64,000 nucleotides of DNA, taken from the IMG/VR virus record IMGVR_UViG_3300042465_006773; one strand, written 5' to 3'. The translations under genes were made by a program, and so were the position numbers. The notes below the pieces were generated by a model. It searched no databases, was not told the DNA's origin, and worked only from the letters and a program-made list of their open reading frames with translations. Of this stretch, positions 3,843 to 45,390 are shown piece after piece (position 1 is the stretch's first letter; every line of letters starts with the position of its first letter). The DNA is from a virus.

Positions 3843-5099
3843 ATGTCAAATAATGAAAAAATTTTCGTACAAATTGCATCATATAGAGACCCCGAACTTC
3901 TACCCACGTTAAAAGACTGTTTGGATAACGCGGAAAACCCTGATAATTTGGTGTTTTCAATTGCTTGGCAACACTCAGAAGAAGATAAATGGGATAATTT
4001 GGATGAATATAAAAATGACCCAAGATTTAAGATAATTGATATAAATTATAAAAGGTCAAAGGGAGTATGTTGGGCGAGAAACTTGCTTCAACAACAATAT
4101 AATAATGAAAAATACACCCTTCAATTAGATTCCCACCACAGATTTACAAAAAATTGGGACACCGAATTAAAATTGGAATTAACGAGGTTGCAAGAAAAAG
4201 GTTACCCGAAACCGATGTTAACTGGTTATATTCCACATTATGAACCCGGTTCGGATTATAGTAGTAGAGAAAGTGTTCCATGGAGAATGAATTTCGATAG
4301 ATTCAGTCCTGATGGAAATATCCATTTTTTACCATCATCCATAGATGATTATAAAGAAAGAACAGAACCGGTTGGTGCCAGATTTTACTCTGCCCATTTT
4401 TGTTTTACGTTAGGTCAACACGCAATAGAAGTTCCTCATGACCCTGAATATTACTTCCATGGTGAAGAAATATCTGTTGCTGTTAGGTCATTTACGTGGG
4501 GTTATGACTTATTTCATTTACATAGAACAATAATTTGGCATTATTATACTCGAAGGGGTTCAATAAAACAATGGGATGATGACAAAGATTGGCCAAAAAG
4601 AAATGATTACTGTTATTATAAAAACAGAAAACTTTTTGGAATGGAAATCGATAACAATAATATAAATTGGGGTGATTATGGTTTTGGTTCACATAGAACA
4701 TTAGAAGATTATGAAAAATATGCGGGTATATCTTTTAAGAAAAGAGGCGTTCAACAATATACTCTTGACGAAAGATATCCACCAAACCCTGTCATTGAAA
4801 ATCAAGAGGATTATGAAAACTCATTTTCAATTAGATTTAAACATTGTATTGATATTGGATATCACGATGTTCCATATGATGATTATACTTTTTGGGCGGT
4901 CGCATTTGAAGATGAAGAGGGTAATGAAATTTTTAGACAGGATGCAAATCCAAATGAAATAAAAAATATGAAAAATGATAAAGATGGATACTGTAAACTA
5001 TGGAGAAGTTTCGAAACAACAAAAAGAGTTGCGAAATGGGTTGTTTGGCCCCACTCCGCTGAACATGGATGGGGTGAAAGACTCGAAGGAAAACTTTAA
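3843..5099 (+). CDS. Glycosyltransferase, Skp1-type GlcNAc transferase family (GT60-like)
   Basis: IFVQIASYRDPEL, GVCWAR, LQLDSHHRF, FHGEEI motifs. Confidence 0.85.
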   Translation: MSNNEKIFVQIASYRDPELLPTLKDCLDNAENPDNLVFSIAWQHSEEDKWDNLDEYKNDPRFKIIDINYKRSKGVCWARNLLQQQYNNEKYTLQLDSHHRFTKNWDTELKLELTRLQEKGYPKPMLTGYIPHYEPGSDYSSRESVPWRMNFDRFSPDGNIHFLPSSIDDYKERTEPVGARFYSAHFCFTLGQHAIEVPHDPEYYFHGEEISVAVRSFTWGYDLFHLHRTIIWHYYTRRGSIKQWDDDKDWPKRNDYCYYKNRKLFGMEIDNNNINWGDYGFGSHRTLEDYEKYAGISFKKRGVQQYTLDERYPPNPVIENQEDYENSFSIRFKHCIDIGYHDVPYDDYTFWAVAFEDEEGNEIFRQDANPNEIKNMKNDKDGYCKLWRSFETTKRVAKWVVWPHSAEHGWGERLEGKL

Positions 5100-6420
5100 T
5101 TTAGATTTTAGTGTTGAAGTGGTGGAAATTACTCCAACACCAAAAGTATCGAAATTAGAAAGAATTTTGGTTCATCTACCTGCATACAGAGAACCAGAAT
5201 TAATTCCAACAATTAAAAGTGCGTTAGAAAATGCTGAATTTCCCGAAAGAATACATTTTGGGATATGTAGACAATATCACCCTGAAGACGGTTTTGATAA
5301 TGTTGATGATTATAGGAACGACCCAAGATTTAAAATCAAAGACATCGTGTACACCGAAGCAAAAGGTTTAGCATATGCTAGAGGTATCATCAACGATGAG
5401 TTACTAACAGATGAAGAATTTGTTTGTCAATTAGACTCACATCATAGATTTGATAAAAATTGGGACAGTACGTTAATTGGTTGGTATCATGAATTAAAAA
5501 ATGATGGTCATAATCCATTAATATGTGGTTATTTACCATATTACGACCCATTTAATGACCCCGAAAAACGTGTTCAAGAACCTTGGTTTTCGAGAGCAGA
5601 ATGTTTTTATCCTCACGGTACCATTTTCATAAGACCAAGTGGTGTTAGGGGTGGTTGGCAACATTTAACCAAACCATATCCCGCAAGATTTATTAGTGGT
5701 CATTTTTGTTTTGGTCCAAACAAATGGGCGAAAGAGGTTAGACATGACCCAAACATTTTCTTTGCTGGTGAAGAAATAAATTTATCTGTGAGGAGTTTCA
5801 CATATGGATACGATTTATTTCACCCACATAAAGTCGTAATTTGGCATGCAACAATGAGAGAAGAAAGAGCCGGAAAATTGGTTTGGGATGACCAACACAA
5901 AAGAGGTGAACCTATGTGGTGGAAACAACAGGAAGTTGGTCGTTCGAGGATAAGACAAATGTTAACAGGCGAAGATAATGGTCATGATTTAGGACCATAT
6001 GGTTTAGGTACAGTAAGAACTGTTCGTGATTATGAAAAATATGCTGGTATTCACTTTAAAAATAGAGCGTTTCAAAAATGGACAATTGATGATAAACCAC
6101 CACCAAACCCACAATTTGAAACAGAAGAAGAATGGGAAAATTCATTTACTCGCTCATTTTATTACTTAGTAACAATTAATAGAGAAGACTTACCTGAAAA
6201 CGACTATGACTTTATTTTGGTCGCATATGATGATGAAAACGGGGAGTCGATATTTAGTAAGTACATTGACAATGGGCAACTAAAGAATTTTCTAACACAT
6301 GGACATCAAATTCACTATGAAGAAATGTTTTATATTGAAAAAGAACCATCAAGAGTGGTATTTTGGGCCCATTCACCTGAAAGAGGTTGGGCTGAAAGAA
6401 AAGAAATAAAATTAAAATAA
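5065..6420 (+). CDS. Second GT60-like GlcNAc transferase (tandem paralogue)
   Basis: LPAYREPEL, GLAYAR, QLDSHHRF, FAGEEI; ORF open from 4975, start uncertain (ATG 5065 or GTG 5119/5122). Confidence 0.8.
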   Translation: MDGVKDSKENFNLDFSVEVVEITPTPKVSKLERILVHLPAYREPELIPTIKSALENAEFPERIHFGICRQYHPEDGFDNVDDYRNDPRFKIKDIVYTEAKGLAYARGIINDELLTDEEFVCQLDSHHRFDKNWDSTLIGWYHELKNDGHNPLICGYLPYYDPFNDPEKRVQEPWFSRAECFYPHGTIFIRPSGVRGGWQHLTKPYPARFISGHFCFGPNKWAKEVRHDPNIFFAGEEINLSVRSFTYGYDLFHPHKVVIWHATMREERAGKLVWDDQHKRGEPMWWKQQEVGRSRIRQMLTGEDNGHDLGPYGLGTVRTVRDYEKYAGIHFKNRAFQKWTIDDKPPPNPQFETEEEWENSFTRSFYYLVTINREDLPENDYDFILVAYDDENGESIFSKYIDNGQLKNFLTHGHQIHYEEMFYIEKEPSRVVFWAHSPERGWAERKEIKLK

Positions 6421-10996: not shown

Positions 10997-12073
10997 ATGA
11001 GTAATAAAATTTTTGAAAATCTGTTTGTATTAGAGTTAGCTAACAACCATTGGGGTTCTTTAAGCAGAGGAAAACAAATTGTAAAAGAATTTGCTAAGGT
11101 TGTTAAGGAGAATAAAATTAAAGCAGCTATTAAATTACAGTTTAGGGATGTGGATAATTTTATTCATAAAGATTTTAAACAAGAAGGTAAAGATATAGAA
11201 TTAGCTACTTTGCCTAAGCGTACTAGATATATTCAAAAGACTTCTAAAACAAAATTAACATATGATGAGTTTAAGGAGTTAATTGATTATATTAAAAAAT
11301 ATGATTGTATCCCAATGTCAACCCCATTTGATGAAAAATCAGTTGATTGGTGTGTACAAATGAACTTACCACTTATTAAAATAGCCAGCTCAGACATCAA
11401 TGACTGGTTATTATTAAATAAAATAGCTAGTACTAAAAAGCCTGTAATTATATCTACAGGTGGAGCTAATGATAAACAAATTGATGACGTTATAAAGTTT
11501 TTTACTAACCGTAATATACCTATAGCTATTAATCACTGTGTATCAAAGTATCCAAGTGAAGATAATGAATTAGAATTAGACCAAATTGATTATCTAAAAC
11601 AAAAATATCCATATTTAGTTATTGGGTTATCAACTCATGAATATCATGATTGGTATTCTTCAATGTATATTTCATATGCTAAAGGAGCTAGAACTTGGGA
11701 AAGGCATATTGACATCCCTTATCCAGCAGGTCACGAGCAAAAAGAAGTATCAAATTATTGTTCATTGCCTAGTCAAATAGATGAATGGTTTAAAGCTTTT
11801 AATAAAGCTAAAATCATGTGTGGTACATCATTAAATGAAAGAAGAGTTATTGATGAAAAAGAATCTAAGTATTTAGAATCACTTTATAGAGGTCTTTATT
11901 TAAAACAAGACTTAGCTAAAGGTACAAAAATAACTGTAGAGCATTTATATAGTGCTATCCCTTATCAAAAAGAAATAAAACATATTACTTCTAGAGAATA
12001 TTTTGATAGTGATTTTATCTTAAACAAAGATTTAAAGAAAGACGCACCTTTAACTAAAAACGATATCATTTAA
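10997..12073 (+). CDS. N-acetylneuraminate synthase family (NeuB/SpsE) with C-terminal SAF/antifreeze-like domain
   Basis: ELANNHWG, STPFD, KIASSD, ISTGG, HCVSKYP, GLSTHE, ERH. Confidence 0.9.
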   Translation: MSNKIFENLFVLELANNHWGSLSRGKQIVKEFAKVVKENKIKAAIKLQFRDVDNFIHKDFKQEGKDIELATLPKRTRYIQKTSKTKLTYDEFKELIDYIKKYDCIPMSTPFDEKSVDWCVQMNLPLIKIASSDINDWLLLNKIASTKKPVIISTGGANDKQIDDVIKFFTNRNIPIAINHCVSKYPSEDNELELDQIDYLKQKYPYLVIGLSTHEYHDWYSSMYISYAKGARTWERHIDIPYPAGHEQKEVSNYCSLPSQIDEWFKAFNKAKIMCGTSLNERRVIDEKESKYLESLYRGLYLKQDLAKGTKITVEHLYSAIPYQKEIKHITSREYFDSDFILNKDLKKDAPLTKNDII

Positions 12074-13809
12074 TGAAAGTTTCGGATATTATTATAAATT
12101 TTTTAGAAAAAAAAGGAATTAACACAGCCTTCACCATATCAGGTGGAGGCTGCATTCATTTAGTAGATTCTTTACGTAAATCTAATATGAATGTTATTTG
12201 TCCTCATCATGAGCAAGCAGCACTAATGGCTAGTGAAGGATACTATAGAATGACCAATAAAATGGCTACTAGTGTTGTAACCACAGGTCCTGGGGGTACA
12301 AATACTATAACAGGTTTGCTTGGTTTATGGTTAGATAGTATACCTTCTATTATTATTTCAGGGCAAGTACCTTCTAATCAACTATCTAAAGGAACAGGAT
12401 GTAGACAAATAGGTGACCAAGAATTTGATATTATTAGTATAGTTAAACCTATGACTAAGTATGCTAAGATGGTTACTGATGCTAATTCTATATTTAGTGA
12501 ATTAGAAAAAGCTTATCAAATGGCTTTAGAAGGTAGACCTGGTCCCGTTTGGTTAGACATACCTTTAGATATACAAGGTGCTAATGTGGATGAAGATACC
12601 CAATTAAGTACATTTTACCCTACTCCAAACTATGACTGCCCAGAACAAATTTTAGAGTGTTTCAAAGAAATACTTGAACAGTCCAAAAAACCACTAGTTA
12701 TAGTAGGTAATGGAATTAGATTATCTAACACTTATAATGAATTAAATGTATTCCTAACTAAAACAAAAATACCAGTAGTAACAGGACCTCATTCAGGTGT
12801 TGATGCTGTTGATAATACTTTAGAATATTATAGTGGCAGAATTGGTATCTTAGGCCAGTTAACATCCAATAAAATAGTTCAAGAAGCTGATTTAATTATA
12901 TCATTAGGTAGTAGATTACCTGTTAAAATGACAGGCTATAATATTCCTGAATTTTCTCCTAATTCAAAGAAAATATTTGTAGATATTGATGTATTTGAAG
13001 TTAAAAAACATAAATTCAATATTGATTTAGCTATTATAACTGACCTTAAAAATTTCTTCTCTGGTATTAGTGATACGAATTATACTTTAGATATATCTGA
13101 ATGGCAATCATTTGTTCTTGAAACTAGAGCAACACAACAGTATTATCATCCAAAACATGAGCAATTAAAAGGATATGCTAGTTTCTATTATTTAGTAAGT
13201 AAAGCACCTAAAATATTTAAAAATACTCCTATAGTTACTAGTAATGGTACGGCTCACGTTATAACATTACAAACATACCAACTAAATAAAGACCAAAGAT
13301 TATTTACAAACGTTGGTTGTGCTAGTATGGGTTATGGGCTACCAGCAGCAATAGGTGCTTGTATAGGTAATAATAAACAAGATATAATATGCGTAGAGGG
13401 AGATGGTAGTATTATGATGAATTTACAAGAACTTGAAACTATAAAAGGATATAACTTACCAGTAAAGATTATATTAATAAACAACGATGGATATTTATCA
13501 ATTAAATTATCACAAGAAGCATTTTTTAATGGAGAAGAATTCGCAAGTAGTCCAACAACAGGAGTAACAATTCCTAACTTTAAAAAAGTTGCAAACGCAT
13601 TTGATATCCATTATCTTAGTATTAAAAATAATAATGAAGTAGAAGATGTGTTAAAAAATATGATGGAAATTAAAGGTCCATGTATGGTGGAAGTATTTAC
13701 CCATCCAAAAGAACGACATGAGCCAAAAGTAACCCATAAGGGAATTGGCCCTGATGGCAAAATTATTCCTGGGGCTTTAACAGATATGTTTATATCAGAT
13801 ACTTTTTAA
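12073..13809 (+). CDS. Thiamine-pyrophosphate enzyme, acetolactate synthase-like (YerE-type sugar-branching candidate)
   Basis: HHEQAA, TTGPGGTN, GRPGPV, SMGYGLPAAIG, GDGS...NN TPP motif. Confidence 0.9.
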   Translation: MKVSDIIINFLEKKGINTAFTISGGGCIHLVDSLRKSNMNVICPHHEQAALMASEGYYRMTNKMATSVVTTGPGGTNTITGLLGLWLDSIPSIIISGQVPSNQLSKGTGCRQIGDQEFDIISIVKPMTKYAKMVTDANSIFSELEKAYQMALEGRPGPVWLDIPLDIQGANVDEDTQLSTFYPTPNYDCPEQILECFKEILEQSKKPLVIVGNGIRLSNTYNELNVFLTKTKIPVVTGPHSGVDAVDNTLEYYSGRIGILGQLTSNKIVQEADLIISLGSRLPVKMTGYNIPEFSPNSKKIFVDIDVFEVKKHKFNIDLAIITDLKNFFSGISDTNYTLDISEWQSFVLETRATQQYYHPKHEQLKGYASFYYLVSKAPKIFKNTPIVTSNGTAHVITLQTYQLNKDQRLFTNVGCASMGYGLPAAIGACIGNNKQDIICVEGDGSIMMNLQELETIKGYNLPVKIILINNDGYLSIKLSQEAFFNGEEFASSPTTGVTIPNFKKVANAFDIHYLSIKNNNEVEDVLKNMMEIKGPCMVEVFTHPKERHEPKVTHKGIGPDGKIIPGALTDMFISDTF

Positions 13810-29293: not shown

Positions 29294-30220
29294 ATGGAAC
29301 TTACGAAAAAACAAATATTAGAAATAACTAAAAGTAAGAAAAACGATTCTCACTTAAATGAGGGAATATTAGATACTGAAAACGTACTTTTAGCCGCGGG
29401 ATTCATACCTGTGATTGGTGAAATTGCGGATATCATTTCAATAATAAGATATATTATGAGGGGTGAACGTCTTAAAGCAGCTTTGACGTTGGTTGCATTA
29501 ATCCCCACAGTTGGTGATTTACTTGTTAAACCCATTTTATTCGCATTTAAAGGGGCACCAAAATTATTAACAACAGGTGGACCTAAGTTGGGTGAATACC
29601 TCGCTAAAAATCCGCAATTGGCCAATAAATTTAAAGATTTAGCACAATACGCTTCTGACCCAAGAGTAACTCAAACCGTGTCAAAAATATCAAATGTAAA
29701 CAAAGGATGGGGAAGAGGTTTACAAGGTGGTTTAGACACATTAAAAAATATATCGGTAAAATATACCGGTCAAGTTGGTAAAGGTTTAGAGGCGGGTGTT
29801 AAATCGTTATCTGCGGGTAAATCATTTGCGGGTGGTCTTAAAGGATATTTTCAAGGACAAAGACTATCAAAGTATTTTGCTAAAAATGGAATGTTACCAT
29901 CAAACGCATTATCAAGGTGGTGGCAAAATGTTTTAGCAAGAAGAGATAGAAGATTGGCGTTTTCTAAATTTTTAATTGCCAACAATTTATTGGGTAAATT
30001 TGGAATACCTAACATCGCTTCACTTGATAATTGGATGAAAGATGAGAATAACTTAAATAAATTAGCTGAAGACCCTACAACAAGTAATTTTATTGCCCAA
30101 AATTCAACCCCACAAGATTTTGGTGGGGGTCAACAACCATCTACCGATGATGGTGGAGGAATGTTAGGTGGTGCAATGAATTTATTTATGTTAAAATATT
30201 TAGCAAAATTTATTGCTTAA
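29294..30220 (+). CDS. Protein with pre-toxin TG-like hydrophobic hairpin (putative ejected protein)
   Basis: AAGFIPVIGEIAD...ALIPTVGDL repeated motif after LNEG; start taken at ATG 29294. Confidence 0.55.
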   Translation: MELTKKQILEITKSKKNDSHLNEGILDTENVLLAAGFIPVIGEIADIISIIRYIMRGERLKAALTLVALIPTVGDLLVKPILFAFKGAPKLLTTGGPKLGEYLAKNPQLANKFKDLAQYASDPRVTQTVSKISNVNKGWGRGLQGGLDTLKNISVKYTGQVGKGLEAGVKSLSAGKSFAGGLKGYFQGQRLSKYFAKNGMLPSNALSRWWQNVLARRDRRLAFSKFLIANNLLGKFGIPNIASLDNWMKDENNLNKLAEDPTTSNFIAQNSTPQDFGGGQQPSTDDGGGMLGGAMNLFMLKYLAKFIA

Positions 30221-30244
30221 AATTAAAATACGAAATATTTATGT

Positions 30245-30345
30245 TTAGAGTCAAATGGTTTGGTCACCATGAGATAATAAACTAATAAAACGAAAGGAGG
30301 GGTTCAATATCTCGGCAAAGGGGTCAATTTGACCCCTTTGTTCGT
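30245..30345 (+). ncRNA. Candidate small RNA A (extended Shine-Dalgarno in a loop)
   Basis: ATATTTAT at 30235-30242; hairpin ATGGT-TTGGTC-ACCAT; GAGATA/TATCTC stem enclosing GAAAGGAGGGGTTC; terminal hairpin CAAAGGGGTC-AATTT-GACCCCTTTG; no ORF >14 codons seen. Confidence 0.55.
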
Positions 30346-30370
30346 TTATGAGATATTGTGTACTTAAAAT

Positions 30371-30400
30371 AAAAAAACCCACCTTGTGAGTGGGTTTCTT
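30371..30400 (-). terminator. Intrinsic terminator downstream of tmRNA
   Basis: On minus: AAACCCAC-TCACAAG-GTGGGTTTTTTT. Confidence 0.8.
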
Positions 30401-30433
30401 TGTACTTATCGGAAAGTACAAAAAGTTAGCCAG

Positions 30434-30851
30434 TGGAGATGGGCGGAATTGAACCGCCGTCCACCCCGAGAAATCATAAATGGACTACATGCTTATTCAA
30501 TTAGTTCACAACTGACAAATAAATGGTTCCTATTTTGACATTGTTACCAATAACTGTGTCGAATTCACTTTTACCACTTTCGTGGATTTACAGGTAGTAC
30601 TCTGAACGAGACCCTTGACACTTTAGGTTGTATCACACCTTAAAGACTTCTGTTTCTAGGTTATTTGTCTCCCGACCCATTGATAGATTCGCCTAGGCTA
30701 CTGCTACCTTGGAAGAAGCGAGGATACCCGCAATTTCCATGTTGTTATAAACGTTGCCGCTTAATTTGTACCATCATTGATTATGGTCATAGATGATGTT
30801 TGACCGCATGCCCATTTAACATTTACACGTGTGTCGATTCCTTTCATCCCC
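30434..30851 (-). ncRNA. ssrA: tmRNA
   Basis: 5' GGGGATGAAAGGAATCGAC pairs with 3' CATCTCCA (G3-U70 Ala determinant); T-arm GGCGGTTCAATTCCGCC; tag ORF 30758-30693 = GNVYNNMEIAGILASSKVAVA*; CCA not encoded. Confidence 0.95.
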
Positions 30852-30855
30852 AAAA

Positions 30856-30866
30856 TTTCAAAGAAC
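30856..30866 (-). promoter_or_regulatory. boxA-like antitermination element in the tmRNA leader
   Basis: GTTCTTTGAAA 4 nt upstream of the mature 5' end; identical copy at 31825-31835. Confidence 0.6.
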
Positions 30867-30926
30867 AAAAAATTGTTATTTGTGATAAATATACGAAAAG
30901 TTTTCAATATTTCAAAAAAAATAGCA

Positions 30927-30954
30927 AAAAAAAAGGTTAGAATTTTCTAACCTT
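30927..30954 (-). terminator. Intrinsic terminator downstream of the giant ncRNA
   Basis: On minus: AAGGTTAGAAAATTCTAACCTTTTTTTT. Confidence 0.75.
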
Positions 30955-30966
30955 AATTAATTGTTG

Positions 30967-31814
30967 AGGGCCTTTCGACTCTTTGCTCCACCACTTGATT
31001 TTAAATCAAGAAAAAAAAAACACTGAGATTACATGTTTTATTAGTTGACTTTAAAAGGATTATTGTTTCCCTTTATATCCACAACCTTTTGAGTTGTACC
31101 AACCAGTGACGGCCAATTAGATTAACCAATCCTTGAGTCATCGGATACTCTCTCAATACTAATCACTCCTCGAGAATGCCTTCCCAATTAACCCTTGCGG
31201 GGTTAGAGGACTTTCTTAAAAATCGTATCGGGCTTGGGACCCTCTACGGCAATGAACGTTTCATTACTAAGTAGTCACCTGTTTCCGACGACTGATGAGC
31301 ACTTTTCCTTTTTATTAGATTTTGTTAATCAAAATAACAAGTTTTTTGGTTTGCGGATTATGAAGGTAGTGGCTCATCGACCAGCCATGTCATCTTTTGA
31401 ACAACACGATACTAAACTACCCTCTGAAATCTCCCGATTTCCATATTTTTGGACTCCTTCAAGAAAAGAACCTTGGTAGGTTCAAATCAAGGACAATAAC
31501 AGCACCACCTGTACAAAGTCATACCTTTCGGTTTTAAGATTCCCATCATATTGAATCACGCGATTACATAGTTGGATGACTATGTTTCTCACATAAATCC
31601 TACGAGTTATTCTTATTGGTGTTCCCACCTCAAATGAAGGACCCGCATCCCCCATTCGTTTTACCACTTTCACTACAGTGTCACCCTCGTTACTCAAGGT
31701 TAAACGATATCTCGTTTGTCTACTCGAGCTCTCTTTCGAAAGCCGCAACTCATCTAACCGAGTGAGTCACTTTATACCACTTTCGTGGTTTATTTAAGGA
31801 CCATAGACGGCCCT
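30967..31814 (-). ncRNA. ~850-nt giant structured ncRNA (GOLLD/ROOL-class candidate)
   Basis: No credible ORF, higher GC than flanks, ends pair (AGGGCC/GGCCCT), many GNRA-capped hairpins on minus (ACCAC-GAAA-GTGGT, ACC-GAAA-GGT, CCC-GCAA-GGG, GTC-GAAA-GGC), own promoter, boxA and terminator; lies between tmRNA and tRNAs. Confidence 0.8.
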
Positions 31815-31824
31815 ATTTTTAAAT

Positions 31825-31835
31825 TTTCAAAGAAC
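31825..31835 (-). promoter_or_regulatory. boxA-like element in the giant ncRNA leader
   Basis: GTTCTTTGAAA. Confidence 0.6.
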
Positions 31836-31883
31836 GATTGATTTTTCAAATCATGGTCTAAACCATAAGTATCAAATCTTTTA

Positions 31884-31891
31884 CAAAGATA
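31884..31891 (-). promoter_or_regulatory. Bacteroidota housekeeping promoter -7 element
   Basis: TATCTTTG matches TAnnTTTG; similar TATATTTG at 33072-33079(-), 41107-41114(-), 43063-43070(-), 45255-45262(-), 59778-59785(+). Confidence 0.7.
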
Positions 31892-31945
31892 CGAAAGAAA
31901 TCAATACAAGTCAAGCATTTTTAAAATTTTTTTTTATTTTTTTTT

Positions 31946-32407
31946 TTAAAGTCTCACTAAATGATTGGCTCCGTAGGTAGTCATAGCCCCATTGTGTTTG
32001 TATCTAACCTTATATCCCATACCTTGAACCAAACCAACAGCCTGTCTTAATACCTTGTTTGACCTAAACTTTGGGTCTGGGTTTAAATCGATATCAATCC
32101 ACGTTACTTTAGGTAAATCGTTATTTCTTAAAAACTCAGCAACTTCTATGGCTTTCCAAACTTCATTAATTAATCTAACTGACATCTCTTTTTCAAATGG
32201 TGTGGTTTCTTTTGTGCACAAAATATGGGCACCTTTACCTTTCATGTATAAAGCGATAACAGTACCGTACACCGTTTTAAAATTACCAAATGATTGAGAA
32301 TCTGACCCAATTAATATTTCGGTGTCAGGTTTTTCTAATAAAAAATTTCTTATATATTCTATTATATTATCTATCGGTATTCCGTGTAGTGTTTTAAAAT
32401 TTTTCAT
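31946..32407 (-). CDS. RNase H-like YkuK (DUF458) family protein
   Basis: ILIGSDSQ, TVIALY..GKGA, RLINEVWKAIEVA, IDIDLN. Confidence 0.8.
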   Translation of the reverse strand: MKNFKTLHGIPIDNIIEYIRNFLLEKPDTEILIGSDSQSFGNFKTVYGTVIALYMKGKGAHILCTKETTPFEKEMSVRLINEVWKAIEVAEFLRNNDLPKVTWIDIDLNPDPKFRSNKVLRQAVGLVQGMGYKVRYKHNGAMTTYGANHLVRL

Positions 32408-32427
32408 AACTTATAATATAAATATAG

Positions 32428-32499
32428 TAGGCCCACCTAGACTCGAACTAGGAATAACAGATTAGAAATCTGTGGTTATATCCCTTTAACTATGGGCCC
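32428..32499 (-). tRNA. tRNA-Arg(TCT)
   Basis: GGGCCCA/TGGGCCT acceptor, ACAGA-TT TCT AA-TCTGT anticodon arm, GTTCGAG T-loop; no CCA. Confidence 0.95.
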
Positions 32500-32506
32500 A
32501 ACTTTG

Positions 32507-32591
32507 TACCACCGACCGGACTCGAACCGGTACGGGAATTACTCCCAACAGAGTTTAAGTCTGTATCGGCTACCAATTACGACACGATGGC
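32507..32591 (-). tRNA. tRNA-Leu(TAA)
   Basis: GCCATCG/CGGTGGT acceptor, ACAGA-CT TAA AC-TCTGT, long variable arm GGGAGTAATTCCC; no CCA. Confidence 0.95.
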
Positions 32592-32635
32592 ATTTTTTTA
32601 TATAAAGATACACAAAAAACTAATGATTTCAAATA

Positions 32636-32878
32636 TTAAATATAGTCTTCACACCATATCGGTGTTTTTTCTCCTACATATGAACCAGAAACATTAAATT
32701 CAAAGTATTCAACGGCATCCATTTCACTCATACCTTGTTTTGTCAGTACATCAATACACTTACTAACAGAATAGATTAATCTCATTGTTTTTGTTTCGAT
32801 ACCTATTATTGCATCGTCGAAACCGTCGGCCATTAAAATATCCTCATCAGGATAGATGTCTAAAATTTTTTGTATCAT
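32636..32878 (-). CDS. Hypothetical phage protein inside the tRNA cluster
   Basis: ADGFDDAIIG...EYFEFNV.GSYVGE.TP, a pattern familiar from phage proteins. Confidence 0.7.
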   Translation of the reverse strand: MIQKILDIYPDEDILMADGFDDAIIGIETKTMRLIYSVSKCIDVLTKQGMSEMDAVEYFEFNVSGSYVGEKTPIWCEDYI

Positions 32879-32897
32879 TTTTTAAAAATATTTTTAG

Positions 32898-32971
32898 TAC
32901 TCCCGATGGGACTCGAACCCACAAGCTTCCCCGTGAAAGGGGGATGTCCTAACCAGTTAGACGACAGGAGC
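32898..32971 (-). tRNA. tRNA-Glu(TTC)
   Basis: GCTCCTG/CGGGAGT acceptor, TCCCC-CT TTC AC-GGGGA; no CCA. Confidence 0.95.
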
Positions 32972-32989
32972 ATTGTTTCATAATTAATG

Positions 32990-33062
32990 TGACCCTGGGC
33001 AGGTTCGAACTGCCGACCCATACATTAAAAGTGTATTGCTCTACCAACTGAGCTACAGAGTC
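32990..33062 (-). tRNA. tRNA-Lys(TTT)
   Basis: GACTCTG/CAGGGTC acceptor, TAGCTCAGTTGGTAGAGC D-arm, ATACA-CT TTT AA-TGTAT; no CCA. Confidence 0.95.
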
Positions 33063-33204
33063 ATTAGGTGACAAATATACATAATAAAAACTAAAAAACA
33101 AAAAAATGTCATATATAATTTTTTAAATATATATGAAAAATAAAATTGCCGGGATATTTATTGTTAACCAAACATGATAAATAAACCAAACATAAATTAT
33201 AACT

Positions 33205-43220: not shown

Positions 43221-45239
43221 TTAGCTTCTTTTTTTAATTATTTTTATTTCACCGTCTTTAAACTTCAGTAAAATGTTTTGATTTTCAGACACCTCACCTC
43301 TTAGTATTTTTTCACTTAAAAAGTCCTCACACAAGTTTTGTATGATTCTCTTTACTGGTCTAGCCCCGAAATCTTCTTGGGTATTCAATTCAGAAATCCT
43401 ATCAACAATTGATGAATCAAATGAAACTTTATAATTTTTTAGTGTGAGTCTTTTTTTAAGTTTCTCTAATTCAAGTTCGATTATTTTGTGGATACTTTCT
43501 TTTACGAGAGGATTAAAACTAATGATATCATCCACCCGATTTAAAAATTCAGGATTAAAGTATTGCTTCAAAGATTTTTGAACAATTAATTTTTTTACTT
43601 CCTCATTTTGAGTATTACTAAAAGATGTTTCAAATCCGAGACCCTTACCAAAATCAGAAACTTTTTTTGCTCCAATGTTAGAGGTCATGATAATTATTGC
43701 ATTTGAAAAACTAACTTTCCTTCCAAAAGAATCTGTAAGGTGTCCTTCATCTAAAATTTGTAATAGTATATTGAACACGTCTTTATGGGCCTTTTCTATC
43801 TCATCAAATAAAACCACAGAAAAGGGGTTGTGTTTAATTTTTTCAGTCAACTGACCACCTTCATCATATCCAACATACCCAGGAGGTGCACCAATCAATT
43901 TTGCAACATTGTGTTTTTCCATGTATTCACTCATATCAACCCGAATAACTTTATTTGGGTCATTAAACAATATCTCTGCAATTGATTTTGCTAAGTAAGT
44001 TTTACCAACACCTGTTGACCCTAAAAAGATAAAGGAACCAATTGGTTTATTGGTGTCTTTAATTCCAACTCTGTTTCTTCGTATTGATTTTGATATAATT
44101 GAGATTGCCTCATCTTGACCAATAACTTTAGATTTCAATTTTTCTTCTAAATTTAAAAGATTGTCAGTTTCAACAACATCAACTTTAGATATAGGAACAC
44201 CGACAATTTGGGATACCATTTCATATACATCATCTATTGAAATTGGTATTTTACTATCTTTTTGTGTTTCCAACCATTTTTCTTTTTCTTCTTGTAGTTT
44301 TGATAAAACCTTTTTTTCTTCATCTCTTAACTTAGCCGCTTGTTCATATTGTTGATTTTTTACTACCTGAATCTTCCTCATTTTTATATCATCGGACTCT
44401 TTTTTAAGTTTTTCAATTACTTCAGGTATTTTAGAGTTTATTTTTTTATCGGAACCAAGTTCATCTAAAACATCAATTGCTTTGTCAGGAAATTGTCTAT
44501 CTGTTATGTACTTTGAAGACAAGGTAACGATTGTAGATAAAACATCATCACTATAATGAACTTTATGAAAATCTTGATATGAATTTCTAAGATTTTTTAA
44601 TATTTGAACTGTTTCATCGGCCGATGGTTCCTTTAAAACTATTTTTTGAAATCTTCGTACAAGTGCACCGTCTTTTTCAATGTTTTTTTTGTATTCATCA
44701 AAAGTGGTTGCACCAATACATTGAATCTCACCTCTAGCCAATGCGGGTTTTAATATATTGGCAACATCCATTGAACCACTTGCGTTACCGGCACCGACCA
44801 TCGTATGCATTTCATCAATAAACAATATTACATTTGGTTCATTTTGTAACTCATTTAAGATTGCTTTAATCCTTTCTTCAAACTGACCCCTGTACTTTGT
44901 TCCTGCAACCAAAGACGTTAAATCCAACGATAATAATTTTTTATCCAATAGATTACTTGGACAATCTCCATTGACTATTTGTAATGCTAATTTTTCAACC
45001 AACGCCGATTTACCAACACCAGCATCACCAACAATTATTGCATTATTTTTTTTCTTTCGGGCTAAAATTTGGGCAATTCTTTTGACTTCTTTTTCTCTAC
45101 CAACAACGGGGTCAATTTTACCTTCTTCCGCTAATTTATTTAAGTCCCTTGAAAAATTATCAAGAACCGGTGTAGTTGAACTTTTTTTTGTTTTTTTGGA
45201 ACTCGATGGGTTCCCATCTTCGAAAAAATCTACTGACAT
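43221..45239 (-). CDS. clpC: ClpC-like AAA+ unfoldase lacking the N-terminal Clp-repeat domain
   Basis: GDAGVGKS and GSTGVGKT Walker A, FIDE and LFDEIEK Walker B, UVR middle domain (QQYEQAAKLRD), GAPPGYVGY, LGF ClpP-docking loop. Confidence 0.9.
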   Translation of the reverse strand: MSVDFFEDGNPSSSKKTKKSSTTPVLDNFSRDLNKLAEEGKIDPVVGREKEVKRIAQILARKKKNNAIIVGDAGVGKSALVEKLALQIVNGDCPSNLLDKKLLSLDLTSLVAGTKYRGQFEERIKAILNELQNEPNVILFIDEMHTMVGAGNASGSMDVANILKPALARGEIQCIGATTFDEYKKNIEKDGALVRRFQKIVLKEPSADETVQILKNLRNSYQDFHKVHYSDDVLSTIVTLSSKYITDRQFPDKAIDVLDELGSDKKINSKIPEVIEKLKKESDDIKMRKIQVVKNQQYEQAAKLRDEEKKVLSKLQEEKEKWLETQKDSKIPISIDDVYEMVSQIVGVPISKVDVVETDNLLNLEEKLKSKVIGQDEAISIISKSIRRNRVGIKDTNKPIGSFIFLGSTGVGKTYLAKSIAEILFNDPNKVIRVDMSEYMEKHNVAKLIGAPPGYVGYDEGGQLTEKIKHNPFSVVLFDEIEKAHKDVFNILLQILDEGHLTDSFGRKVSFSNAIIIMTSNIGAKKVSDFGKGLGFETSFSNTQNEEVKKLIVQKSLKQYFNPEFLNRVDDIISFNPLVKESIHKIIELELEKLKKRLTLKNYKVSFDSSIVDRISELNTQEDFGARPVKRIIQNLCEDFLSEKILRGEVSENQNILLKFKDGEIKIIKKRS

Positions 45240-45390
45240 ATTTTGTTTTTTATACAAATATAAGGGATTTCATGATAAAAAACAAATATATGACAAAATA
45301 ACCTAAAAAAGAAAAAAAGTATGACAATATGTCAGTTTGTGTAATTTGGAATCTTTTTTGTATAAACATATTCAAATAAAAAAATATAAT

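Follow-up and report, generated by a model that had tools for sequence, protein, structure and literature searches.

A GOLLD RNA gene with a boxA-like leader in a probable T4-like freshwater phage of Bacteroidota

The minus-strand region between the tmRNA and tRNA genes of the 64-kb stretch of viral DNA analysed here (the window) is very probably the GOLLD RNA gene of a T4-like phage infecting Bacteroidota. The RNA is a canonical GOLLD over its full length, a type of giant phage RNA known before, and takes the form of a non-coding, covariation-supported molecule of two domains and ~800 nt, which runs from 31814 to about 31012 (-). The gene is preceded by a leader with a boxA-like word, the sole feature of this GOLLD gene that was not found in print, in a search of titles and abstracts.

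Identity of the RNA and its phage context

An Rfam scan of the whole window matched GOLLD (RF02032) at 31424-31020 (-) with 314.5 bits (E = 3.6e-89). The cmscan alignment takes in the full model (1-416 of 416), flags none of the consensus pairs as non-canonical, and scores about twice the gathering score of 150 bits. An earlier note made from the sequence alone had proposed a GOLLD-like member as one of two readings, and the full-model match confirms it. ROOL, OLE, RNase P, and group I/II introns, which the note had named as other families to be compared with cmscan, gave no match at the gathering threshold over the window and none even at E up to 1 in 30855-31960, where GOLLD is the sole significant family of a permissive Rfam scan (E up to 1). 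RsaA at 30929-31050 reached 25.4 bits against a cut-off of 50 (E = 0.086) and was taken as a chance match over the terminator region. The part covered by the RF02032 model constitutes the conserved 3' domain (31020..31424, -). The G+C content of the region is 0.36-0.455 vs ~0.30 for the window, in agreement with the raised GC noticed earlier.

The window encodes a T4-type Gp23 capsid protein, a Gp20 portal protein, a T4-type large terminase, a protein with a type IX secretion (T9SS) sorting domain, and a ClpC-like ATPase at 43221-45257 (-), which is 49-57% identical to cellular homologues. The best 80 relatives of this ATPase are nearly all from Bacteroidota, which supports that phylum as the host phylum and suggests acquisition from a host, and the T4-type proteins, the T9SS domain, and the ClpC relatives together indicate a freshwater T4-like phage of Bacteroidota. 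Two tandem GlcNAc-type glycosyltransferases (PF11397) and a thiamine-pyrophosphate enzyme, at 3843-6420 and 12073-13809, are probably auxiliary surface-sugar genes. A blastn search against GenBank phages returned one partial match, to the 642-kb uncultured phage LR756502.1 (locus L001), whose GOLLD at L001 831-1319 scores 275 bits and is followed by a tRNA gene within 10 nt. GOLLD is absent from the nearest viral record (G001), which is a 24 kb fragment and hence uninformative on this point.

Four tRNA genes, Arg(tct), Leu(taa), Glu(ttc), and Lys(ttt) (32427..33062, -), and one tmRNA gene (30431..30851, -), all found with Rfam and ARAGORN, lie within 1.3 kb of GOLLD on the same strand. The placement between tmRNA and tRNA genes had been recognized in the earlier note, and a phage location beside tRNA genes is typical of GOLLD. 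An RNase H-like gene (PF04308, phrog_11311; Pfam E = 1.8e-16) is located directly upstream of the GOLLD promoter at 31946..32407 (-). Ten of 117 loci, including L081, L063, L057, L002, L103, and L066, have a relative of this gene (34-63% identity) on the GOLLD strand within a few kb, and the RNase H-like protein is a possible processing partner of GOLLD.

Leader of the GOLLD gene

The predicted promoter (31884..31914, -) carries the -7 box TATCTTTG at 31891-31884 (-), which matches the TAnnTTTG of Bacteroidota and bears out the promoter named in the earlier note. A sigma-70 scan reads the promoter as TTGACT-17-TATCTT, an A/T-rich tract lies upstream of the box, and transcription is predicted to start near 31877. 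Downstream follow the leader hairpin TGATT-TGAAA-AATCA (31839..31853, -) and, 3 nt after it, the boxA-like word GTTCTTTGAAA (31825..31835, -), so that the hairpin occupies the boxB position. A hairpin is found at the same place in relatives (consensus tCGGAaatgTCCGA + aac + GTTCTTTGA), and one also precedes the word in at least one Bacteroidota rrn leader (L202). The window leader has the hairpin between TAnnTTTG and boxA and is free of RNA contig cover. At the other end of the transcription unit, an intrinsic terminator-like hairpin of 9 bp with a loop of 4, followed by T9, is located at 30954-30933 (-), as the note had also stated.

The 11-mer GTTCTTTGAAA has two exact copies in the 64 kb, one in the GOLLD leader and the other at 30866-30856 (-), 4 nt before the mature 5' end of the tmRNA; the same word stands 6-7 nt before the tmRNA genes of related loci. 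Its core, GTTCTTTGA, was found within 160 nt upstream in 31 of the 37 non-redundant GOLLD genes with enough upstream sequence. Twenty-one of the 37 loci have TAnnTTTG on the upstream side of boxA (0.056 expected per site), and the spacing between the two ranges from 23 to 48 nt (mode 26-28; 48 nt in the window), mostly with a hairpin in between. Across related loci, the core occurs 146 times vs ~14 expected from composition; 77 of these occurrences are within 112 nt upstream of GOLLD, 21 sit 8-22 nt before a tRNA gene, and several sit 6-7 nt before a tmRNA gene. Its presence before tRNA and tmRNA genes indicates that the word marks stable-RNA genes generally and not GOLLD alone. Before the tRNA genes of related phages it often appears as GTTCTTTGACATATTGG right after a terminator-like hairpin. 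The same core is present in 14 of 24 distinct Bacteroidota rrn leaders from an even genome sample, 85-217 nt before the 16S gene, and the looser GTTCWTTRA in 18 of the 24, vs 1% of shuffled leaders. On the strength of the counts in GOLLD leaders and rrn leaders, the boxA-like leader of the earlier note therefore stands.

The E. coli rrn leader comprises a promoter, a boxB hairpin, and boxA, and serves a Nus-factor antitermination complex. Given that GTTCTTTGAAA is the boxA word of Bacteroidota rRNA leaders, Nus factors would confer termination resistance, and by this analogy the leader suggests rRNA-type antiterminated transcription of GOLLD. Transcription would begin at the host-type promoter TATCTTTG and pass the hairpin and then GTTCTTTGAAA, host Nus factors would make the RNA polymerase termination-resistant on the long untranslated GOLLD RNA, and the leader and the 3' trailer would then be trimmed off. 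It is about an even call that, in T4-like phages of Bacteroidota, GOLLD and the phage tmRNA and tRNA genes form a stable-RNA set marked by the host rRNA-leader boxA, with the Nus machinery making GOLLD. In that reading, the host promoter and the hairpin usually precede boxA, and GOLLD is perhaps folded co-transcriptionally by the Nus machinery.

Distinctly less likely, and on balance doubtful, is that GTTCTTTGA, instead of being boxA, serves stable-RNA genes as a phage-specific promoter, operator, or RNA-processing signal. Upstream of tmRNA 5' ends its distance is only 6-7 nt, and upstream of tRNA genes 8-22 nt; in some cases a terminator-like hairpin directly precedes the word and TAnnTTTG is missing in front of it. 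Such placement also suits a processing or initiation signal. However, 14 of 24 Bacteroidota rrn leaders carry the identical 9-mer at 85-217 nt before 16S, which speaks for boxA, as does its position before GOLLD, 26-28 nt downstream of a host -7 box with a hairpin in between, like in rrn leaders. As a -7 promoter box in its own right, GTTCTTTGA was rejected: the TA of TAnnTTTG is missing from it, and in most cases a proper box is found 26-28 nt further upstream.

The segment between boxA and the RNA differs among the loci. In most relatives, a conserved AGATTATCCrTTCAGGAGTA segment follows boxA and a conserved GATAAAnGATAA abuts the first GOLLD nucleotide; the window, L087, L036, and L061 are without both, and their boxA is 9-13 nt from the 5' end. 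The RNA contig of one relative reaches 50 nt upstream, through the GATAAAnGATAA motif, which is thus transcribed at least there. In the library searched, four papers contain both words, GOLLD and boxA, but none has them in its title or abstract, and matches of the 11-mer GTTCTTTGAAA in paper texts were unrelated primer sequences only. The boxA leader offers an experimental way into the question of how so long an untranslated RNA avoids Rho termination; it ties GOLLD to the phage tRNA and tmRNA genes and may help to find the function of GOLLD. If the boxA reading is true, a cage-forming GOLLD would be made by the Nus-factor rRNA transcription machinery of the host.

Extent, expression, and fold of the RNA

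RF02032 covers the conserved 3' half only, and the remaining 390 nt (31814-31425) should thus be the variable 5' half. When a conserved 3'-domain motif was used as a probe, more than 117 viral contigs with GOLLD were obtained, and 31814-31425 aligned from query position 2-3 to 390, at 65-80% identity, in ~90 viral GOLLD loci. Alignment over the whole 5' half in ~90 loci indicates a common environmental 5' domain and a conserved boundary at ~31814. The GOLLD 5' domain (31425..31814, -; RNA nt 1-390) rests on this homology and on compensatory changes in its helices 1-20. Ahead of the 3' domain, the RNA has the structured and less conserved 5' part of ~400 nt that is expected of GOLLD, with a total length of ~800 nt.

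On the 3' side, the homology shared by relatives ends after GTAATCTCAGNNT(T)n, at about 31020-31010 of the window. A U-run at 31010..31019 (-) marks the conserved 3' end of the RNA, and the ends of RNA contigs at 31012-31024 give a weak hint to the same place. What follows this end in relatives is a tRNA or a terminator with no relation to the window trailer; a tRNA lies within 150 nt 3' of GOLLD in 27 of 118 loci, and in 24 of these it is tRNA-Met. The trailer of the window (30967..31009, -), which contains GGCCCT, is common to no homologue and has no RNA contig. A decayed tRNA was considered for 31009-30967, where relatives have tRNA-Met, and found unsupported by ARAGORN and Rfam.

The stretch is present in 20 public runs, 14 of lake or freshwater DNA, four of which may be where this DNA came from, and six of river or freshwater metatranscriptomes. 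Four RNA runs from four studies were mapped as Logan contigs on 30200-33200. In these four metatranscriptomes, RNA contigs span 31012/31024 to 31795/31798, for example contigs of 772 nt and 811 nt with 2-3 differences from the window, and the tmRNA is covered by RNA contigs as well. Contig cover was zero in the bins 30907-31007, 31816-32421, and 30200-30400 in the four RNA runs, a weak hint as it comes from contigs, and flanks without cover argue against DNA carry-over. GOLLD is thus transcribed, as the ncRNA call in the earlier note implied, and made as a discrete non-coding RNA; on its ends and strand the contigs are a hint only. In contigs of two runs, an Illumina adapter follows directly after 31798, the 3' edge of helix P1, which could reflect a 5' end 16 nt inside the conserved start or a reverse transcription stop at the P1 pseudoknot.

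The conserved and accumulated RNA is accordingly ~800 nt long (31814 to about 31012), and not the 848 nt (30967-31814) proposed in the earlier note, whose boundaries fail at the unconserved, contig-free trailer. It is very unlikely that the functional unit is an 848-nt RNA closed by an AGGGCC/GGCCCT helix. In the window, one hexamer is the perfect complement of the other, and the primary transcript probably extends to the terminator at 30933. However, the 5' AGGGCC is occupied in a covarying local hairpin, P1, in which 31813-31809 pairs with 31802-31798 (alignment pair 2:17: GC 21, CG 8, UG 5, UA 4). The loop of P1, 31808-31803, pairs with 31723-31718 to form a pseudoknot (pair 9:118: GC 26, CG 8, AU 3, UA 2). 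Of 64 distinct homologues, only the window itself has, within 140 nt of its 3' end, six nucleotides complementary to the 5' end, and the 3' strand of the helix (30967-30972) lies beyond the conserved end, in the unconserved trailer, outside every RNA contig of the four studies. The closing helix described in the note is thus unique to the window and gives way to P1, and with it the 848-nt boundaries lose their support. The long-range pairs 3:815 and 4:814 proposed by RNAalifold were dropped in favour of P1 because they involve only invariant columns.

The fold was assessed on an alignment of 39 sequences, every pair of which is <93% identical. RNAalifold gave 195 pairs, 144 of them with compensatory changes, and the structure together with P1 amounts to 198 pairs in 38 helices. 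Paired cells make up 96.5%, vs 79.8% in shuffles (none of 500 as high) and 37-42% with slid partners, and the pairs changed on both sides number 146, vs 103 in shuffles and 44-67 when slid. Compensatory changes in 146 of 198 pairs bear out the structured RNA of the earlier note; they fall in helices 1-20 of the 5' domain as well as in the 3'-domain helices. The single-sequence folding z-score is -4.7, and the cmscan alignment indicates that the 3'-domain consensus helices and pseudoknot can form.

The hairpins singled out by eye fared differently. ACATAGT-CATCCA-ACTATGT at 31586-31565 corresponds to helices 13 and 14 and is real and covarying, and GNRA-capped hairpins are present, such as CCAC-GAAA-GUGG at 31788-31777. 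AAACGA-GATA-TCGTTT (31717-31702) is indeed perfect in the window and pairs in 78.6% of cells across homologues, but it competes with better supported structure, since its bases are shared with two long-range helices whose pairing reaches 100% and 92% of cells. It covaries partly (pair 124:133: UA 14, CG 13, other 12) and may be a transient alternative fold or a co-transcriptional folding intermediate. A variable A/U-rich linker of 64 nt (31304..31367, -) corresponds to the poorly aligned columns 524-611 and is unalignable among homologues. It is closed by helix 23, 31378-31368 with 31303-31294, which has 10 pairs, six of them compensatory, and 99% of cells paired. Relative to the Rfam consensus, this helix crosses the outer stem of the 3' domain's first hairpin and thus forms a pseudoknot that is absent from the Rfam structure line. 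The 4-nt loop GGCA at 31180-31177 contains an invariant GC.

Two further readings have next to no probability. A new class of giant ornate RNA, unrelated to or merely resembling GOLLD, was raised in the note since the family could not be assigned by eye, has no supporting point, and is refuted by the full-length Rfam match at twice the gathering score and by the homology of both domains to more than 100 GOLLD loci. That the region encodes small proteins is scarcely credible either: the two longest ORFs of the region, an 88-aa TTG ORF at 31482-31748 (-) and an 81-aa ORF at 31234-31479 (+), are both open in the window, but each is interrupted by in-frame stops in 36 of 38 homologues, indel lengths are not divisible by three, and substitutions keep base pairs and not codons, in line with the absence of a credible ORF reported earlier.

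Cage assembly and comparison with known systems

The GOLLD family is reportedly first described in Weinberg et al. 2009. The class is thus already known, since 2009, with its cage solved in 2025, and lake phages with GOLLD beside tRNA genes are the textbook setting. The present gene adds a well-bounded, naturally expressed GOLLD from a phage with a nameable host phylum, with a 39-sequence alignment that supports the 5' domain, the P1-loop pseudoknot included. Since tRNA and tmRNA genes constantly accompany GOLLD, a part in how the phage deals with translation is favoured, for instance holding or shielding tRNA-sized cargo.

The env-38 GOLLD of 833 nt forms a 14-mer nanocage of D7 symmetry (PDB 9MEE), in which 5' domains make up the caps, 3' domains the rings, and a disordered linker lies inside (Kretsch et al., 2025, PMC12286853). 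The Streptococcus agalactiae GOLLD of 700 nt forms a 12-mer (PDB 9L0R; review PMC12990946). GOLLD oligomers vary among 10-, 12-, and 14-mers, and the stoichiometry follows the helices present (PMC12286853, PMC12990946). By inference from these two solved relatives, the window RNA would form a cage as well, with a 12- to 14-mer as the best guess of its size. RNA copies alone, with no protein, would build a closed cage of dihedral symmetry, with the 5' domains as caps, the 3' domains as rings, and the linker 31367-31304 facing the interior.

The window RNA resembles env-38 in its Rfam family, two-domain layout, length (~800 vs 833 nt), internal variable linker, origin from a lake or aquatic phage, and adjoining tRNA genes. 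The GGCA loop at 31180-31177 lies about where the self-pairing L21a loop has been described, by an inferred mapping. The two differ in the sequence itself. Among related GOLLD loci, 24 have a tRNA-Met 3' of the RNA, whereas the window has none. With the S. agalactiae GOLLD, the window RNA shares the conserved 3' domain and presumably the cage-forming principle. However, the S. agalactiae RNA is without several 5' and 3' helices (P9, P11a-c, P21b) and has another stoichiometry (PMC12990946), and the window RNA, unlike it, is of the longer environmental type.

ROOL and OLE are likewise large, ornate RNAs that form RNA-only oligomers and, for ROOL, are associated with phages or tRNA genes, but they are unrelated to the window RNA in sequence and secondary structure, without an Rfam match at E up to 1. 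Compared with rrn leaders, the GOLLD leader of the window has a single promoter and no identified boxC, and its cargo is a phage GOLLD (elsewhere tmRNA or tRNA) and not rRNA. It shares with them the order of predicted promoter, hairpin, and boxA word, and its 9-mer is identical to that of Bacteroidota rrn leaders.
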